This document shows positions 17,417-47,481 of a stretch of 64,000 nucleotides of DNA, one piece after another. The position numbers and the translations under genes were made by a program. Under the pieces are notes generated by a model. It worked only from the letters and a program-made list of their open reading frames with translations, was not told the DNA's origin and did no database searches. Origin of the DNA: Candidatus Thalassarchaeaceae archaeon (GTDB taxonomy: Archaea; Thermoplasmatota; Poseidoniia; Poseidoniales; Thalassarchaeaceae); the NCBI GenBank assembly GCA_045568075.1, contig JBJLBP010000001.1, forward strand, positions 377,232 to 441,231. Direction: 5' to 3'. Every line of letters starts with the position of its first letter. Position 1 is the first letter of the stretch.

Positions 17417-17520
17417 CCGCGCTTAGCTCAGTTGGCTAGAGCACCTGACTGTAGACTGGAAACACTTGGTTGTAGGCAGCCATCAGGGGGTCCCCGGTTC
17501 AAGTCCGGGAGCGCGGACCA
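17417..17520 (+). tRNA. tRNA-Tyr (anticodon GTA) with a 27-nt intron at the canonical 37/38 position and a genomically encoded CCA.
   Basis: Manual fold: acceptor CCGCGCT/AGCGCGG (7 bp), D-stem GCTC/GAGC, anticodon stem CCTGA/TCAGG with an intervening 34 nt (CT-GTA-G plus a 27-nt insert plus A), 5-nt variable loop, T-arm CCCGG-TTCAAGT-CCGGG, discriminator A, CCA. Confidence 0.75.
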
Positions 17521-20470: not shown

Positions 20471-23053
20471 ATGCGTCGCATATCCGCCGTGATGATGGTC
20501 CTCGTTCTCCTGACCGCGGCAGCACCAGTTATCGATGCTGCAAGCAAGGGTGTGATCTCTTGTACGCCAGCCGACTTGGAGATGCTTCCTGCTAACTGGG
20601 ATATCGACGATGGAGCCTGCGTCAGAGTTGATTTGGGCGTCCTATCTCCTGGAGATACGCTTTCCTTCGATGTCAACGCGAATACAGATGTTGACTTGCT
20701 TCTATTCTCAGCAAGCTCGATTTCCGTCTATCAAAACGAACAAAATTATCGCCATGAAACAGTTTGGCAGGGCGAGTCTGTATTCGAGTCATTTACTGGA
20801 GAAGGCACTTGGCATTGGACCACGCCCGACGATCGTGGCGATACTCGATGGTATCTCGTGCTCGACAATATGGCACACCCGCAGGATCAGGGTAATGGTG
20901 CTCAGGGTGGATCTCTGGCTAGTGTAATTCTTGACGTTGAAGAAGTCGATTCACCTGTCTTCGGCGTGGTTGACACAATCGTTCGCCTCGAAACAGGGGG
21001 TCACTCGGTACTCGCAGGTCCTTTGATGCTTGATGAAGGGACTCAAATCAATTTCTTTGCGACAACGATGGAGGGGCATCCTGACATTTTCCTCATGACT
21101 CAACCCCAACTCGATCTTTACCAGCAAGGTGGAACAGCCGCGACTCGAATCGATGAGACTGACATGTTACTGGTTTCTGACGAGCGAACCCTCGCTTGGT
21201 CGGTCACATCCGAGTACGCGGGCCAGGATCTCTTCCTCGTCGTCGACAATCGCGCAGGTCCCTCGGGTGGTGGCGCGGGTACGGGCTATGTCGCGACCAC
21301 TGTGGTGATGGATTTGGTCCCGGTTCTCAATCCCATGATTACTAATTCATCGACTCTGAGTATAGTCGATGTTGGCGCCGAGATTCTTCTCGACGCATCG
21401 GAAACACCGAATCTCTCGAATCAGATAGATCGCGAAACAGGATTCCAGTGGGATACCAACGGAGATGGATACCACGATACTGCTGGCACTTCGATCATGG
21501 TCAGTTGGGACGAGCCGACGCAGATCAGTGTCGGCCTACGCGTCGTCTCCGAGGATGGCCGAAGCGCCAGTATCTATTTCGACATATCAGTCGAGGATAT
21601 TTCGCCACCGAGCGTCAGTCTTTCAGCCACCGATACGATACGCAAGGATTTCGATGACCAACTTTTGTTGACCGCTTCAATCGAGGATAATTGGGGCATT
21701 CAAACAGTCGAATGGCTTGTCGATGACGAGGTCATCGATTACTACAGTAATTGGGATTGGCAAGATGGAAAGACATTCACATTCCGCTTCGATTCATCCT
21801 ACGAACCCGGCGACCACGAGGTTAAGCTGAGGGTGACTGATAAGGAGAGTCAGATTACTGAAAAGATTGCAATCATCGATCTTTATGATTCGACTCCACC
21901 GATTGTGCCTGAACAGACGGTGGAGATGACAGTGATTTTGGGAGAACCATATCAATTCAACGCTGAGGCTATGGATGCTGAATCTCCGAATATGCAATTC
22001 TACTGGGACTTTGATGCCGAGACGGATAGCGACGACGACGGTATTACCGACAATGATGTAGACGCGAGCGGTGCAAAGGTCATCCAAGACTTCCAGATTA
22101 GAGGCACTATCCAAGTGATTTGCACAGTTGTAAATGATGCTGGAGTTTCAACGCAAGTCACTTACTACGTGACTGTGCGCTCTCTTGCTGACGACGACTC
22201 CGGAATCACTCCAATGGTCATTGCTCTGTTGGCTGTAATTCTGGTTCTACTCTTAGTCGGTGGTGTTGGCATGATATCGTGGCGCAGAATGTCAAACGCG
22301 CGCCTAGAAGCGCTACTCGCCGAGCAGGCCGAAGCCGAGGAAGAAGAACCTCGCGAACTCTCCGTAGAGGAGCAGAAAGCGATGTTCGGTGCTGGTTCTG
22401 TAACAATGGATCAACCCGCTTCGATGTCGACGACATCTCCGTTTGGACAGTATGGCACGGGGATGTCGGGTGCCAGTGACCCACAGGCGACTATCGGCTC
22501 GGATGTGGCGATGGGTGATTCTGACCTTGAGGCTCTGATGAACACACCCGGTCCGATTACCGCAGACGCACCATCCAGCCCGGCCGCGGACTTACTCGCT
22601 GAATTTGGCGAGGATGATTCGGTTGGCCGAGATGAAATAGTCGAATTTTCACATGATGACGGCGCTGGCACCAGCGATGATATTTGGTCACCAGAAGGTG
22701 TTGTTGGAGATGAGATGGCAGACGCTTTGCCGGCTCCTCCTCCTCCTGCCCAAGAGCCGGATGCAAATTCACTACTCGATGATGACCTCCCGACCCCTCC
22801 TCCGCCGGTCAGCGAGGATTTACCATCTCCACCAGCACCAGAAGAGGTCGAATCCGATGTGGAAGACGTAGTGGAAGACGTAGAAGATTCAGAAGATCTG
22901 CAAGAATCTGAAGAATCCGAGCCCGAATCCCGACTTGTGCAACAGGATTGTAGCCAGTGTGAGCAGCGATTCGAAGTCACACTTCCAGAGGGTCATGATG
23001 TTGCTAGGACAGCTTGCCCATCCTGCGGCGCAATTGAGACAGTGAGCCTCTGA
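20471..23053 (+). CDS. Large type-I membrane surface protein A: signal peptide, Ig-like beta ectodomains, TM helix, ~260-aa acidic/Pro-rich disordered cytoplasmic linker and a C-terminal CxxC-x18-CxxC zinc ribbon.
   Basis: Signal MRRISAVMMVLVLLTAAAPVIDA; the start is taken at ATG 20471 because of an SD-like element at 20449-20460; TM ITPMVIALLAVILVLLLVGGVGMI; tail PPPPAQEPD...VEDVVEDVEDSEDLQESEESE; ends CSQCEQRFEVTLPEGHDVARTACPSCGAIETVSL. The ORF track starts at GTG 20456. Confidence 0.6.
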   Translation: MRRISAVMMVLVLLTAAAPVIDAASKGVISCTPADLEMLPANWDIDDGACVRVDLGVLSPGDTLSFDVNANTDVDLLLFSASSISVYQNEQNYRHETVWQGESVFESFTGEGTWHWTTPDDRGDTRWYLVLDNMAHPQDQGNGAQGGSLASVILDVEEVDSPVFGVVDTIVRLETGGHSVLAGPLMLDEGTQINFFATTMEGHPDIFLMTQPQLDLYQQGGTAATRIDETDMLLVSDERTLAWSVTSEYAGQDLFLVVDNRAGPSGGGAGTGYVATTVVMDLVPVLNPMITNSSTLSIVDVGAEILLDASETPNLSNQIDRETGFQWDTNGDGYHDTAGTSIMVSWDEPTQISVGLRVVSEDGRSASIYFDISVEDISPPSVSLSATDTIRKDFDDQLLLTASIEDNWGIQTVEWLVDDEVIDYYSNWDWQDGKTFTFRFDSSYEPGDHEVKLRVTDKESQITEKIAIIDLYDSTPPIVPEQTVEMTVILGEPYQFNAEAMDAESPNMQFYWDFDAETDSDDDGITDNDVDASGAKVIQDFQIRGTIQVICTVVNDAGVSTQVTYYVTVRSLADDDSGITPMVIALLAVILVLLLVGGVGMISWRRMSNARLEALLAEQAEAEEEEPRELSVEEQKAMFGAGSVTMDQPASMSTTSPFGQYGTGMSGASDPQATIGSDVAMGDSDLEALMNTPGPITADAPSSPAADLLAEFGEDDSVGRDEIVEFSHDDGAGTSDDIWSPEGVVGDEMADALPAPPPPAQEPDANSLLDDDLPTPPPPVSEDLPSPPAPEEVESDVEDVVEDVEDSEDLQESEESEPESRLVQQDCSQCEQRFEVTLPEGHDVARTACPSCGAIETVSL

Positions 23054-23141
23054 TTCATTTGAATTGAAGTCGTCCCTCGTCGAGTTCCCGGAACATGGCA
23101 AGACGACGCATCAACTACACCTGCCGCCCAAGACCCTAAAT

Positions 23142-23160
23142 CGCACCTCATAGAGGTGCG
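23142..23160 (+). promoter_or_regulatory. 5'-UTR hairpin CGCACCTC-ATA-GAGGTGCG immediately before the giant-protein start; the 3' arm is the SD (GAGGTG, 5 nt from the ATG) and the 5' arm is an anti-SD mimic (CACCTC).
   Basis: An 8-bp perfect inverted repeat read from the sequence; the ATG is at 23164. Confidence 0.4.
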
Positions 23161-23163
23161 CTC

Positions 23164-26100
23164 ATGGAACACGGTTCAGTGCGCTTAATCAGCAAAGCGC
23201 CGCGAGCCCGAATTTCACTACCAATTCTGATTGTAGCACTATTTCTTCTTCCAACTCTCGCCCCTTTCGCTGCCGTCAGTGGAGAGGCGAGAATCGAATC
23301 TGAGGACTTCGCAATTCTCAATGAGCTCAGCGAAGTCCTCGACCAACGCGAGCAGGTGGTCAGCAGCGATACTGTGAGCAAACTTGCTGGACCTTTACTC
23401 GATCAAGTTCGGGTCGGTGTACAGGAGACTTCAGTCGCCGATCCACTCCATGATATCGACGAGGCTCTCGACGAGGTATCAATGGTCGAAACCGCTGCAC
23501 CACAAGTCATTCATCCCGAACCTTACATCATTCTGACTGACGAAAATAGCCGCCCTCCTGGCGAAGTCAGAACCATTTGGTCGACTCTTTTCAATCTCAC
23601 AGATTACGTCATTTGGACACGATATGTAGACGATGAGGGTAATGTCGTCGAGCAATCTGAGACCATAACCTTCCTCACATCTCTCCTATCTCTTTTCGAC
23701 TCTGAGACCGAATTTTTGCTTCATCAGGTCGACATCGACCAGGATGGTGATGACGACATTCAGGTTGGTCTCAGCATCGAGATCAGTGACCCCGAACTCG
23801 ATGGAACCACACTTTCAGTCGCGCCTCAACTCGATTACAAGATCAGTGTGCTGCCCTCAAGCATGACTGATTCCGATTGGGAAAATCTAGAAACTCTAGA
23901 AGTGAGTCTTCTCAAAGCATTCGCGTATTCCGATGGAATCCTTACCGAGGGTGAATCATACGTTTGGGTTATTGATTCAAAATTCACTCATACACCTTAC
24001 GATTTCACCCTCGGAGTTGGTCTCGAACGATTCTACTTCGATCTCTCAGAAGCGGGGGCCGATTTCCTCCTATCGATTTTCAATGCGCTATCCTTCGGCG
24101 TGTTCAACGGTGGTGATGAATCTGGAATTACAATCGCTTCAATCGCCGCTCCATACCAGATATCAATAGACAATTCCGGCCAGACCGAATGTCCAGATCG
24201 CTACTCGCCGATTGAACTCACAACTCTTCCATCCAGTCAAATCTCCTGTGGAGTCACAGCAGGCTTCGGTTACGTCCACTATTCTCCTCCAAATATCGAA
24301 GATGAACGAGATGTCTGGGAGGTGGCCTACATTGAAGCCGCAATTCACCCTAATCGTCTCTCCACCACCCTCCCTGAACAGCTTGATCTCACAATCCGAA
24401 CTGATAGCACGATGGCCGACGGCACGGGCAGTGCTGGTGAAAATGGCCTGACAACCGTCGAGTACTGGGCCGATGAGCGCGCAGACCTCCACATACACTT
24501 CCACGAGAACCGCTCAGAGGTTCCACCCGAGAATGCCGATGGAACTTATGGTAACTCAACCGACTCCATCGGCTGGCTGCGCGGAATGCCTGCAGGCAGC
24601 CTCACCACAGAGGAGATCGATCGCACTTTCACCATGCTCGGTTCAAAGTCCGAGCCTCAACTACCTGGTGGCCAACCGAATCAACTCGGCCTCATCATCG
24701 GTGTCAAGAATTTCACCCGCGATACATCGCAGAACGTCGACGACCCCTCTCTCCCAGTCAATCCAGCATACCCGCCAAAGACTCTCGTTCTGGTAAGGTC
24801 AGTCCAATCGCTTGAGGAGGTGGATTATCATTCTTGGATGAAACGTGGTGGCGCGGCCACCGACCATCGGCGGATCGAAATTACTGCTCAAGACTTACCG
24901 ACCGCCGTCGTGCTCTTTGGCTCATTTGAGTTAGGTGGGACTGAAGAGGCAGACACAAGTCTCGATTCGGCACAAAATCTTGATTTCATGTCGAGAATCT
25001 TCGATGTTGTCCTGATCAACATAGTCGACCTCTTCCTCGATATCGGCACTATTCTGAACGACATTCCATCTGCCACAGTCGACGTCATCAGCGGTGGAGT
25101 CGGCGGTTCGGGTGGCCTAACAGGACAGACTCTTCACCTATTGATGAATGATCATTGGAGAGCCGATCGACAGGCTAGGTCAATCTCAGAAATCGGCCTG
25201 CAGATCGGTTCAAGCTCGCATCCTACGATGCCTGGCGATCATCTGATCCTCGCAAAAGACAGACAGTTGGAGACAGTTCAAGGGCGTCAGGGTCCGGTGG
25301 TGCCGATGGTGGTAGTAGCTGCGAGTTTACGTTTCAGTGGTCTGAGCCAGTTCACTCTTATCGATGATCTCGAGTCGGAATCCCAACAGGTTTCACTCCT
25401 GACTTCGTCGGAAAAACAGTTCTCATTCCTTTACATCGATCACAAACCGAATGATCTCAGCGGCGCAGCCCATCAAGGCGTCCGAATATCCGATATTCCG
25501 GACAATCTCTCCGCCGAACTCACACCCCAACTCGCAACATACCAAGCTAGTTCCTCTATCGATAGTATCAGTTACACTGGTATTGATGGTGACCAACGGC
25601 AGGCGACTCACGTTCTCGATTTGCCTGCCGAGTTTGAGATTGAATTTGGCGATGTGACTACTTGGAGCGCTTCATCGCCGATTTCTTCCATTCATGCCCA
25701 ACTCACAGATTCTACAAATCCTGTGACGATGGGCGGCGATCACTTCCTTTTCCATCACGAGCCGTCCGATGGTAGCTCGACTATCTCAACTCGTATTTCG
25801 GGATTGCAAGAGGTTGGCTGGCGAGCACCAGCCGAACCAGGTGCCAGTGGAGCAATTGGTCGTGGCACCGCTTTCATGACCGCTGCCGGCGACCGCACGA
25901 TGAGCATCAATGTCGATCATGCGCCGACTCAGGATGAGGGGGGCTTGTCGGCGCTCGTTCTCATCGATCCACTTCCATCCACTATCTCGGTCGATATTCC
26001 AACGGGAGCCGATGCAGGAAACAGCCTCGTCTTCCCCGAATTGAACACGACTCAAGGTGTCGCTGGCGTGGCTTTCTTCCTTGGCGGTTTTGCCGATCTC

Positions 26101-27531
26101 GGTCGCTCTGTGAACACGGTCCTCGCTGGTGTGACAAGTGAAATTTCGACAGGATCCGATGGTGGCAATGGTTCATTCTCTTACGGTCTTCAGCTCGATG
26201 CAGACAGTAATTTTGACCTGATTTTCGAAGCCAGCCATGGAAATGGCACTGCGGATGCCCCACCTTGGGTACACGGAATCGCGCTGAACGCAGCACCTTC
26301 AGGAATATCGGATGGCTTCCATATCCGTGGATGGATTCCAGATTTACCTCCGATAATCGATATCTCGGTCAGTCGAACCCCGACTTCAACCGGTGAAGAA
26401 TGGGCAATCGCCATGGGTTTGGATGGATGGTTGCCCGCGCGCAGTGAATTCATGCTGAACTCGCGCGGTATCAACGGTCAGGACCTGATGATGACACTGC
26501 AAGGCTTGACCGTTGGTGAATCAACTGCACTAGGACTCGATTCGGAATTCTTGATCCGAGAAACAAGTGGTGGGATTACCGAAGTAACAACAACGACTCA
26601 CTTCGTGATGTCGAATAGACTCGATTGGATTCATGCTCTTCTAATCAATCGAGAGGCCGGCGCACGGACGGAGATGCTGATCAATGACATTCCCGAATCC
26701 ATCGATTTGCGCGCCAGTCTAGGCACGTCCATATCGCTGGATATGACCGTGCCAGATGCATATCGTCGAGCCGGTCCTGCCGTGGACTCGATGATGATGC
26801 AACAGATGCAATGGATGGACGGTTCTTGGTGGCCGGCTACGATTTTCCTGACCGACGTCCCTGACGCGATTAATCTCACGACAGAGCCAGATCTCGATTT
26901 TGACATCACCAAAAGTCTCGCATTCCAAGGGACTCCTGTACTCGACTTCTCCGCCTCGGCTGATGGAATGTCACTCTACATCGAAGCCAACGGCCGCGCT
27001 ATCAACAGTCGAGGCGAAATCATCCTCCTCGCCGAGGGCATGACCGATCGAATGGTCATCAAACCGACTGAGGATTATGGTCTCGCGATTCGCAGTGGAG
27101 GCGATGGAGTCGATCGAATCTATTTGCGCGCCTCCAATATGCCGACAACTCCTCCTGTTGTCCTCGAAGAAATGGAGGCGCTTGGCGAGAATTTGCGAAG
27201 CGCGACGATTCATGTCATTGAGATAGTCGGCCCATACAGCGTCATTGAGATAGAAGATGTACAAGGTGGACGAATCGTTGCATCCGCGCGCGCGACGGCT
27301 GAAGTCGAAGCCATTGGTATGACCTTTGATTTGCGTGGCGTTCTACTCGACGCTCAGACCACCGGAGGAGTACCGACTGGAACCAGTCTTGGGGTAAACG
27401 GTCTCGCTTCCGATCTCTCGCTGCTGAATCTAATCCCTGGATTTGAAGGCTCCACCCATCACATAATTGTCCCGGAGCCTCTCTCATCCGGTGTGCTAAC
27501 ATTCTGCGCTACATTCCTGGGAGGTGACTAA
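23164..27531 (+). CDS. Giant (1455 aa) secreted or N-terminally anchored surface protein B with no recognisable domain.
   Basis: N-terminal signal/anchor LPILIVALFLLPTLAPFAAVSG; an uninterrupted 4.4-kb ORF with coding-like codon usage; Asp/Thr/Ser-rich beta-type composition; TAA stop at 27529-27531. Confidence 0.6.
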   Translation: MEHGSVRLISKAPRARISLPILIVALFLLPTLAPFAAVSGEARIESEDFAILNELSEVLDQREQVVSSDTVSKLAGPLLDQVRVGVQETSVADPLHDIDEALDEVSMVETAAPQVIHPEPYIILTDENSRPPGEVRTIWSTLFNLTDYVIWTRYVDDEGNVVEQSETITFLTSLLSLFDSETEFLLHQVDIDQDGDDDIQVGLSIEISDPELDGTTLSVAPQLDYKISVLPSSMTDSDWENLETLEVSLLKAFAYSDGILTEGESYVWVIDSKFTHTPYDFTLGVGLERFYFDLSEAGADFLLSIFNALSFGVFNGGDESGITIASIAAPYQISIDNSGQTECPDRYSPIELTTLPSSQISCGVTAGFGYVHYSPPNIEDERDVWEVAYIEAAIHPNRLSTTLPEQLDLTIRTDSTMADGTGSAGENGLTTVEYWADERADLHIHFHENRSEVPPENADGTYGNSTDSIGWLRGMPAGSLTTEEIDRTFTMLGSKSEPQLPGGQPNQLGLIIGVKNFTRDTSQNVDDPSLPVNPAYPPKTLVLVRSVQSLEEVDYHSWMKRGGAATDHRRIEITAQDLPTAVVLFGSFELGGTEEADTSLDSAQNLDFMSRIFDVVLINIVDLFLDIGTILNDIPSATVDVISGGVGGSGGLTGQTLHLLMNDHWRADRQARSISEIGLQIGSSSHPTMPGDHLILAKDRQLETVQGRQGPVVPMVVVAASLRFSGLSQFTLIDDLESESQQVSLLTSSEKQFSFLYIDHKPNDLSGAAHQGVRISDIPDNLSAELTPQLATYQASSSIDSISYTGIDGDQRQATHVLDLPAEFEIEFGDVTTWSASSPISSIHAQLTDSTNPVTMGGDHFLFHHEPSDGSSTISTRISGLQEVGWRAPAEPGASGAIGRGTAFMTAAGDRTMSINVDHAPTQDEGGLSALVLIDPLPSTISVDIPTGADAGNSLVFPELNTTQGVAGVAFFLGGFADLGRSVNTVLAGVTSEISTGSDGGNGSFSYGLQLDADSNFDLIFEASHGNGTADAPPWVHGIALNAAPSGISDGFHIRGWIPDLPPIIDISVSRTPTSTGEEWAIAMGLDGWLPARSEFMLNSRGINGQDLMMTLQGLTVGESTALGLDSEFLIRETSGGITEVTTTTHFVMSNRLDWIHALLINREAGARTEMLINDIPESIDLRASLGTSISLDMTVPDAYRRAGPAVDSMMMQQMQWMDGSWWPATIFLTDVPDAINLTTEPDLDFDITKSLAFQGTPVLDFSASADGMSLYIEANGRAINSRGEIILLAEGMTDRMVIKPTEDYGLAIRSGGDGVDRIYLRASNMPTTPPVVLEEMEALGENLRSATIHVIEIVGPYSVIEIEDVQGGRIVASARATAEVEAIGMTFDLRGVLLDAQTTGGVPTGTSLGVNGLASDLSLLNLIPGFEGSTHHIIVPEPLSSGVLTFCATFLGGD

Positions 27532-27532
27532 T

Positions 27533-28102
27533 ATGGGCTTGTTAGAGAAGATGCGCAATGCCGAGGAAGAGACTCGAGAGGATATAGACGAGGCCACTGA
27601 GCGCGCTCACGAAATTCTGCAAATCGTTGGCGAGCGTGTCGAGCAAGTTCGACCGAGTCGAGTGATATTCGCCTCGGTCGCCGTTCTGTTGATTGTCAGC
27701 GGGATGTTCATCATTGGAACTTGGTTAGTCCCATACGACCGGACGAGCGTAGATGTGGTATACATTCAAGGGGGCTCTGGTCACGTTGTTTTGGTCGAAT
27801 TAGACAACAAAGGATCTCGCTCGATAACCGACGTTAATCTTGACATTCGATTCCTCGATGATGCAAGTCTCGAAATCGGTAGATCTAACTTCCAAGCTGG
27901 TGAAATCGCCGCCCATACTTCGATTGCTGGAGACGACTTGGAATTGCTCATCGCCGGCGCTTCAGTCTGGGAGAATTACACGATTGAAATCATTCTCGAT
28001 TACACATATGGAGGCGATGATTATCACGAACGCTGGACCTACAATGTCGGTGGGTGGCAGATGGAGATGTTCACTTACAATGCCCCGATTCACTTCTTCT
28101 GA
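27533..28102 (+). CDS. Bitopic membrane protein C: charged helical N-terminus, one TM helix, ~120-aa ectodomain; translationally coupled to protein B.
   Basis: GGAGGTGA (27520-27527) lies 5 nt before ATG 27533 and overlaps the last codons of B; TM VIFASVAVLLIVSGMFIIGTWLV. Confidence 0.5.
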   Translation: MGLLEKMRNAEEETREDIDEATERAHEILQIVGERVEQVRPSRVIFASVAVLLIVSGMFIIGTWLVPYDRTSVDVVYIQGGSGHVVLVELDNKGSRSITDVNLDIRFLDDASLEIGRSNFQAGEIAAHTSIAGDDLELLIAGASVWENYTIEIILDYTYGGDDYHERWTYNVGGWQMEMFTYNAPIHFF

Positions 28103-28119
28103 CACGACCTACGGTCGTG
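28103..28119 (+). terminator. Intercistronic hairpin CACGACC-TAC-GGTCGTG directly after the stop of gene C; one of the CC-UAY-GG tip family.
   Basis: A 7-bp perfect stem with a 3-nt loop, read from the sequence; there is no downstream T-tract, so its function (terminator, processing or stability element) is open. Confidence 0.3.
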
Positions 28120-32665: not shown

Positions 32666-32728
32666 ACCGCGACCCTACGGGCTCGCGTGGCCCGAAGCCC
32701 TTAGAGGGGCCCGATTCTCGGCAGAGCG

Positions 32729-47462: not shown

Positions 47463-47481
47463 CTCAGTATCCGATACTGAG
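47463..47481 (+). terminator. Perfect 9-bp inverted repeat CTCAGTATC-C-GATACTGAG 13 nt after the nuoN stop.
   Basis: Read from the sequence; positioned as an operon-end hairpin; no T-tract. Confidence 0.35.

Follow-up and report, generated by a model that had tools for sequence, protein, structure and literature searches.

Why should the only Shine-Dalgarno (SD)-like sequence upstream of a gene for a 1455-aa protein be paired within a perfect palindrome that ends 3 nt before its start codon? This arrangement occurs in a 64,000-nt stretch of the genome of a Candidatus Thalassarchaeaceae archaeon (GenBank assembly GCA_045568075.1, contig JBJLBP010000001.1, positions 377,232 to 441,231, forward strand), hereafter the window, with coordinates counted from its first nucleotide. 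The palindrome, CGCACCTC-ATA-GAGGTGCG, spans 23142–23160 and is followed by CTC and by the ATG, at 23164, of what we call the giant gene. An initial annotation made from the sequence alone described the hairpin, its position and its distance from the ATG correctly, and proposed that it occludes the ribosome-binding site. We tentatively favor a different account, to which we give a little less than an even chance: judging from sequence, the palindrome would be an operator-like dyad embedded in a leaderless promoter, its 3′ half doubling as an SD that matters solely on read-through transcripts.

A palindrome between a TATA-like block and a start codon

As RNA, the palindrome would form a perfect stem in which six of the eight pairs are G-C. 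The stem is present in both the minimum free energy (MFE) and the centroid structure of a 167-nt context, and in isolation its computed free energy weakens with warming, from –19.9 kcal/mol at 4°C through –17.4 at 15°C and –12.5 at 37°C to –6.2 at 65°C. Computed unpaired probabilities of the core SD bases stay below 0.01 up to 55°C. GAGGTG is the sole SD-like sequence upstream of the gene, as the initial annotation had stated, and the CACCTC of the opposite arm is the complement of the SD consensus of the window, GGAGGTGA. This agrees, as an indirect check, with the identity to the 16S anti-SD core given in the initial annotation; the window contains no 16S gene for direct comparison. A terminator scan found no intrinsic terminator here, the hairpin running into CTCATGG without a U-tract, and Rfam returned no match at the gathering score for the whole window or at E≤1 for 22950–23350. 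Hairpins of this kind are not rare in themselves, as the window holds 35 perfect 8-bp hairpins versus 7.8 in shuffled sequences. As an observation on the whole window, perfect 8-bp inverted repeats with 3–8-nt loops are about four times commoner than in dinucleotide shuffles, and many are intragenic. What makes the palindrome at 23142–23160 non-random is, on sequence comparison, its conservation and not the occurrence of a hairpin.

The signals before other genes provide a frame for interpreting the element. Across the 49 ORFs (open reading frames) of the window, a TATA-like YTWWR motif lies at –30 to –28 from the start codon in eight genes (background 0.38 per position) and is found in none at –44 to –31 or at –27 to –19. 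The full GAGGTG beginning at –11, 5 nt before the start codon, occurs in seven genes, the giant gene included; the six others start no more than 15 nt past the preceding stop codon and have no TATA motif. The window is therefore split: first-in-operon genes have TATA-like motifs without SDs, and SDs are restricted to operon-internal genes. This split lends no support to the interpretation in the initial annotation. Among the genes of the window, only the giant gene combines TATA and GAGGTG. The 5-nt distance from its GAGGTG to the ATG is the register of the six other full sites, and it lacks their operon-internal context, being separated from the upstream stop codon by 110 nt and having a TATA box of its own.

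This TATA box belongs to a block (23126–23141) that resembles a recognition element for transcription factor B (BRE) followed by a TATA box, similar to CCCGAAGCCCTTAGAGG before gene 32729 and to CGACGACCTTTAGCG before gene 4995 on the minus strand. Its TAAAT occupies –27 to –23 from the giant-gene ATG, the modal place of the TATA-like motifs of the window and the register of eight of its 49 genes and of the conserved promoter of gene 32729. This agrees with a leaderless archaeal promoter, whose BRE/TATA is expected to be centered about 25–27 nt before the start codon. Footprinting in the same loci showed that the promoters of neighboring genes likewise consist of a conserved BRE/TATA block and then a variable spacer. 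The ATG of gene 32729 stands at a fixed distance from its block; for the L15e and PKD genes, the annotated starts differ in conservation from this, not being kept across loci. In build and register the giant-gene block is like these promoters. Literature searches turned up no promoter or start-site data for Poseidoniales. In Haloferax volcanii, 72% of mRNAs are leaderless (0–5 nt), typically those of highly expressed genes, the BRE is CGAAA, and native GUG starts on leaderless mRNAs occur (PMC4983044).

Conservation among orthologues and a predicted leaderless promoter

Upstream regions of orthologues came from three sources: genome loci, contigs that encode chosen homologues, and a scan of metagenomes with distant relatives. 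Those bearing the element amount to 63 distinct sequences. The palindrome is present once per orthologous locus, always at the start of the giant gene, and a mobile or repeated element was rejected on this ground. Beyond –38 the upstream sequences are unalignable (0.45 bits per position), and from –38 to –23 all palindrome-bearing orthologues conserve the promoter block as GCCCAAGACCCTAAAT, GGGCAATACCCTWTAG or GGGGAATAACCTTTAC. The offset between the TATA block and the palindrome is 0 in 63 of 63 sequences, and GAGGTG stands 5 nt from the start codon in 45 of them and 8, 9 or 10 nt from it in the other 18. In 42 distinct sequences from GC-rich lineages the two arms are identical at all 16 positions, even at the two outer pairs, beyond the SD core; these same sequences contain nine loops (TAG, TAA, AGA, TTA, ATA, TGA, TGT, TTC and TAT). 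GC-rich clades show no arm variation at all, and the constraint there is equal on both half-sites. The element thus shares with a promoter-overlapping dimeric operator its dyad symmetry, with conserved half-sites around a free central spacer, and its fixed place in the promoter. The 3-nt tails between palindrome and start codon come in 14 distinct forms, in which position –1 is C (nine) or T (five) and never a purine, and all four bases occur at –2 and –3; a pyrimidine at –1 followed by a purine at +1, here the first base of the start codon, matches the initiator of a leaderless promoter. Sister clades of the giant-gene family have the TATA box, no SD and no palindrome, and the family is therefore translatable without an SD.

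Because the block lies at leaderless distance, a pyrimidine at –1 precedes a purine and the TATA-to-palindrome offset is fixed, we predict transcription to start at or near the ATG. In the model that we prefer, TATA-binding protein (TBP) and transcription factor B (TFB) would bind the conserved block, and RNA polymerase would start at, or a few nt from, A23164. The main mRNA would then begin with the start codon, and by this promoter geometry the hairpin and the SD, at –22 to –4, would both be absent from it. The palindrome would instead fill, as DNA, the stretch needed by TFB and polymerase, and could provide a two-fold symmetric site for a putative dimeric DNA-binding regulator which, when bound, would block polymerase recruitment and turn the gene off. 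The 3′ half-site would act as an SD only on longer RNAs that extend into it from the same-strand gene upstream, and in GC-rich lineages the 5′ arm would hold that SD shut on such transcripts. With the start predicted at the ATG, SD occlusion would thus be limited to read-through or upstream-initiated transcripts.

Several observations weigh against this model. The 3′ arm is the SD of the organism at its exact 5-nt spacing, a coincidence that we estimate at about 1e-3 for an unrelated operator half-site. The 3′ arm also has a higher information content than the 5′ arm, and in a low-GC clade (GC 0.37–0.39) the 5′ arm drifts (for example CATATCTC, CATGTATC and CACGTCTC) through C>T changes that leave wobbles, with occasional compensated pairs and mismatches as well. 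None of the 41 distinct 25-mers departs from AGGT, and many of them have changes in its partner columns; such unequal conservation is predicted by a functional SD and not by a symmetric operator. Over these 41 sequences 90% of cells pair, 20 cells are G-U or U-G, and double changes occur at two pairs (GC to AU six times, CG to UA three times). These nine double-change cells compare with 3.0 in shuffles, a count reached by 1 of 500, and the covariation score of 0.170 (0.142 in shuffles) was likewise reached by 1 of 500. Wobbles and double changes are weakly RNA-like; the covariation is weak evidence of RNA pairing because the variation sits in one AT-drifting clade, where C>T changes in a C-rich arm yield wobbles automatically. 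One abundant clade has a GTG start, a codon less favored on leaderless mRNAs. The 64-kb window and the flanks of the loci yielded neither a further copy of the site nor a regulator. In the window lineage the terminator scan found no oligo-T terminator between the upstream gene and the giant-gene promoter, which makes it plausible that read-through RNA includes the hairpin. A position weight matrix derived from 12 other promoters places its best match before the giant gene, in the register expected, but scores the block modestly (3.35 bits, top 0.75%), and on orthologues it often favors other positions without singling the block out; we gave this matrix no weight in our reading. Finally, the transcription start at the ATG is itself a prediction from sequence.

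Other features of the orthologous upstream regions were noted. A GC-rich subclade of a sister clade (L044, L045 and L058) has a different palindrome that straddles the start codon (at 1501), AAUCCUCCU-AUGA-AGGAGGAUU, with a free energy of about –11 to –16 kcal/mol and a 3′ arm encoding Lys/Glu-Glu-Asp. Promoter geometry would place this palindrome at the extreme 5′ end of the mRNA, and it has no counterpart in AT-rich sister lineages. In L031–L033 (starts at 1501, 672 and 1501, respectively) an in-frame ATG within the decayed 5′ arm lengthens the called protein by 5–7 residues. Three contigs from independent assemblies (L010, L020 and L093) begin 33–37 nt before the ATG, where the conserved block has its upstream edge; we considered these contig ends as RNA ends and rejected the idea, an assembly break between strains probably being the best explanation. 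A ‘GAG’ promoter-proximal motif shared by all clades was also dropped, as it is missing from some subclades.

Competing accounts of the palindrome

The strongest competitor, which we regard as a serious rival though less probable than the promoter dyad, is close to the proposal of the initial annotation: most translation of the gene would be from a leadered mRNA that owes its origin to read-through from the PKD gene or to an upstream promoter, and the hairpin would lock the SD until a protein, a helicase or an antisense RNA opened it. The canonical position of GAGGTG at –11, shared with six operon-internal genes, its complete pairing in silico, the fixed AGGT opposite a drifting 5′ arm with its wobbles and compensated pairs, the GTG start of one clade and the lack of an upstream oligo-T terminator in the window lineage all favor this view, as does an AT-rich element about 50 nt before the ATG in several lineages that could be a second TATA box. 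Such upstream AT-rich elements are, however, missing from the GC-rich L002, L003 and L009, and those of the low-GC clade resemble T6–T7 terminators. The conserved BRE/TATA block at leaderless distance and the pyrimidine at –1 also speak against it, and it is the TATA-to-palindrome spacing that is fixed while the SD-to-start spacing varies from 5 to 10 nt. The outer C-G and G-C pairs never covary in GC-rich clades, and the orthologue is translated without an SD in sister clades. A lock of –13 to –17 kcal/mol would also be permanently closed at ocean temperatures: given the stability of the stem, a transcribed SD would be closed at all of these temperatures unless opened, and no sensor is obvious, as the loop is unconserved, no aptamer-like structure is apparent and no Rfam family matches.

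The observation behind the initial annotation was right and its interpretation only partly right. The identity of the 3′ arm as an SD is probably meaningful, given its canonical spacing and an AGGT that persists even where the 5′ arm decays. Occlusion of the SD would be near-complete if the hairpin were transcribed, and the main transcript is predicted to lack it. The annotation had itself named a transcription start downstream of 23150 as incompatible with its interpretation, and such a start is what the BRE/TATA block at leaderless distance and the pyrimidine at –1 predict. Nor do the loop, which is unconserved, and Rfam, with no matching family, support the interpretation.

These two views could also be combined, in a module that we consider rather improbable on present sequence data, and that accounts for most observations at once. 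The same 19 bp would be the TATA-to-start spacer of the promoter, possibly an operator, and a self-locking SD on read-through RNA. If so, the giant protein would be made only from transcripts of its own promoter, the gene being translationally insulated from upstream transcription, and lineages with a decayed 5′ arm would be those in which the lock has been released and the SD is used.

We think it quite unlikely that the palindrome is a transcript-end or insulator hairpin which stops or stabilizes the 3′ end of the upstream-gene RNA, its likeness to an SD being a relic of an operon-internal past. Hairpins of comparable shape, with GC-rich 7–8-bp stems and 3-nt loops, do follow the stop codons of the 189-aa gene (28103–28119) and of the S8 protease gene (32669–32686) and are kept in orthologues with altered sequence, further hairpins lie at 47463 and 57067, just past stops, and the window as a whole has an excess of perfect inverted repeats. 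Yet these stop-proximal hairpins precede the next BRE/TATA and vary in sequence between lineages, whereas the palindrome follows its BRE/TATA and is fixed in sequence. No U-tract comes after it, and the intergenic region already has a hairpin at 23069–23107. For the same reasons (no U-tract, a position after the TATA box, another hairpin already behind the stop), the possibility raised in the initial annotation that the palindrome is merely the terminator of the upstream gene was not borne out. The stop-proximal hairpins may, judging by their sequence and placement, be 3′-end signals of this lineage; one example reads GCGACCC-TAC-GGGCTCGC versus TGCTC-CCAGAGT-GAGCA in an orthologue. None of these hairpins has a T-run after it.

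An RNA thermometer, in which warming would melt the stem and free the SD, shares with the element only the topology of an SD in a stem beside the start codon, and we give it next to no credence: the stem is perfect with six G-C pairs, folding at several temperatures from 4 to 65°C keeps the SD closed up to 55°C or more, and the host is a planktonic marine archaeon, so that the thermosensing suggested in the initial annotation is excluded by stem stability. Two further candidates were rejected: an upstream ORF opening the stem by coupling, as the 14-codon in-frame ORF in question (ATG 23095 to TAA 23137) is limited to the closest relatives; and a described RNA family, none being found by Rfam. 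Five viral-contig matches, which bear on a mobile element, are unrelated chance matches, four of them in high-GC contigs.

The giant gene, its neighbors and known regulatory systems

No possible start lies between an in-frame TAA (23137–23139) and the ATG at 23164. The giant protein has no match in Pfam, NCBIfam or the PDB and at least 313 relatives in public collections; the 16 genome loci with relatives all come from metagenome-assembled genomes of Poseidoniales/Thalassarchaeaceae (Marine Group II). The C terminus of the family, examined in window positions 27460–27531 and in the C termini of P0121–P0129, carries a conserved (V/F)PEP-x-(S/T)S and, after it, a short tail of hydrophobic residues (in the window, PEPLSSGVLTFCATFLGGD), which looks like a C-terminal sorting or anchor signal as far as its sequence can tell.

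A gene for a 189-aa membrane protein starts 1 nt past the giant-gene stop (TAA-T-ATG, 27520–27535), and GGAGGTGA inside the end of the giant gene precedes it as a textbook coupled internal SD that is kept in orthologues. This neighbor was ruled out as the regulator: it has a transmembrane helix and no family match. On the other side, the hairpin just past the stop of the PKD gene is probably the 3′-end hairpin of that gene, and similar stop-proximal hairpins also follow other genes of the window. The start of the PKD gene is likelier ATG 20471 than 20456 and that of the S8 protease gene likelier ATG 28163 than 28145; in both cases the longest-ORF rule probably chose the wrong codon, as orthologues do not conserve the upstream starts. 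The window also encodes the archaeal ribosomal protein L15e and a 101-nt intron-containing tRNA gene (17417–17517, plus strand) that scores 56 bits with Rfam and was missed by ARAGORN; a TATA-like GATAAAC is centered 28 nt before the mature 5′ end of this tRNA, a distance that we count in favor of the leaderless reading of the giant-gene promoter. Coordinates of the features around the giant-gene start are collected in Table 1.

Table 1. Features at and around the start of the giant gene (window coordinates).
Feature	Position	Strand	Remarks
Upstream gene, PKD domain and C-terminal zinc ribbon	20471–23053	+	Same strand as giant gene; possible read-through source; synteny in most orthologous loci
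Imperfect hairpin GTCGTC...GACGAC	23069–23107	+	Just past stop of upstream gene; in MFE and centroid fold
BRE/TATA-like promoter block GCCCAAGACCCTAAAT	23126–23141	+	GGGCAATACCCTWTAG or GGGGAATAACCTTTAC in other clades
5′ arm CGCACCTC	23142–23149	+	Holds CACCTC, complement of the SD
Loop or central dyad spacer ATA	23150–23152	+	Nine variants among perfect-arm sequences
3′ arm GAGGTGCG	23153–23160	+	GAGGTG at 23153–23158, SD-type, 5 nt before ATG
CTC and ATG	23161–23166	+	C23163/A23164, predicted initiator and predicted transcription start
Gene for 1455-aa protein	23164–27531	+	N-terminal signal/transmembrane segment; Marine Group II-specific family

Marine Group II archaea are abundant in the ocean and uncultured, and we know of no gene-regulation elements described for them. 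A cis element that is identical base for base across lineages whose proteins are only about 55–60% identical, and that precedes a lineage-specific 1455-aa surface protein, offers a handle on their regulation. It could be used as bait for a regulator, as a marker in metatranscriptomes and as a test case for how leaderless and SD-led initiation can share a gene. Should the SD half really be in use, one sequence would serve the control of transcription and translation at once.

Set beside known systems, the element has partial counterparts. Bacterial 5′-UTR (untranslated region) hairpins that sequester the SD (riboregulators, ROSE and fourU elements) likewise pair an anti-SD-like strand with an SD that lies a few nt ahead of the start codon. 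Unlike them, the stem described here is perfect and far too stable, its loop is unconserved, it has no ligand or sensor domain, its host is an archaeon and it probably lies upstream of the transcription start. Archaea such as Sulfolobus and Haloferax divide their genes between leaderless first genes and SD-led internal genes, and the window follows this split, first genes having TATA at about –28 and no SD, internal ones having GAGGTG at –11; the giant gene departs from it by carrying both signals, which a single perfect palindrome joins. The archaeal repressors MDR1, LrpA and Phr and TrmB-family regulators are known to have operators that lie across the core promoter, downstream of the TATA box. 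As in those systems, the position of the palindrome is fixed to the TATA box, and by analogy a bound dimer would block polymerase recruitment. The palindrome differs from them in that its arms match none of their motifs, that no second site and no regulator turned up in the window or the flanks of the loci, and that one of its halves is a canonical SD, which in one clade is more conserved than the other half.

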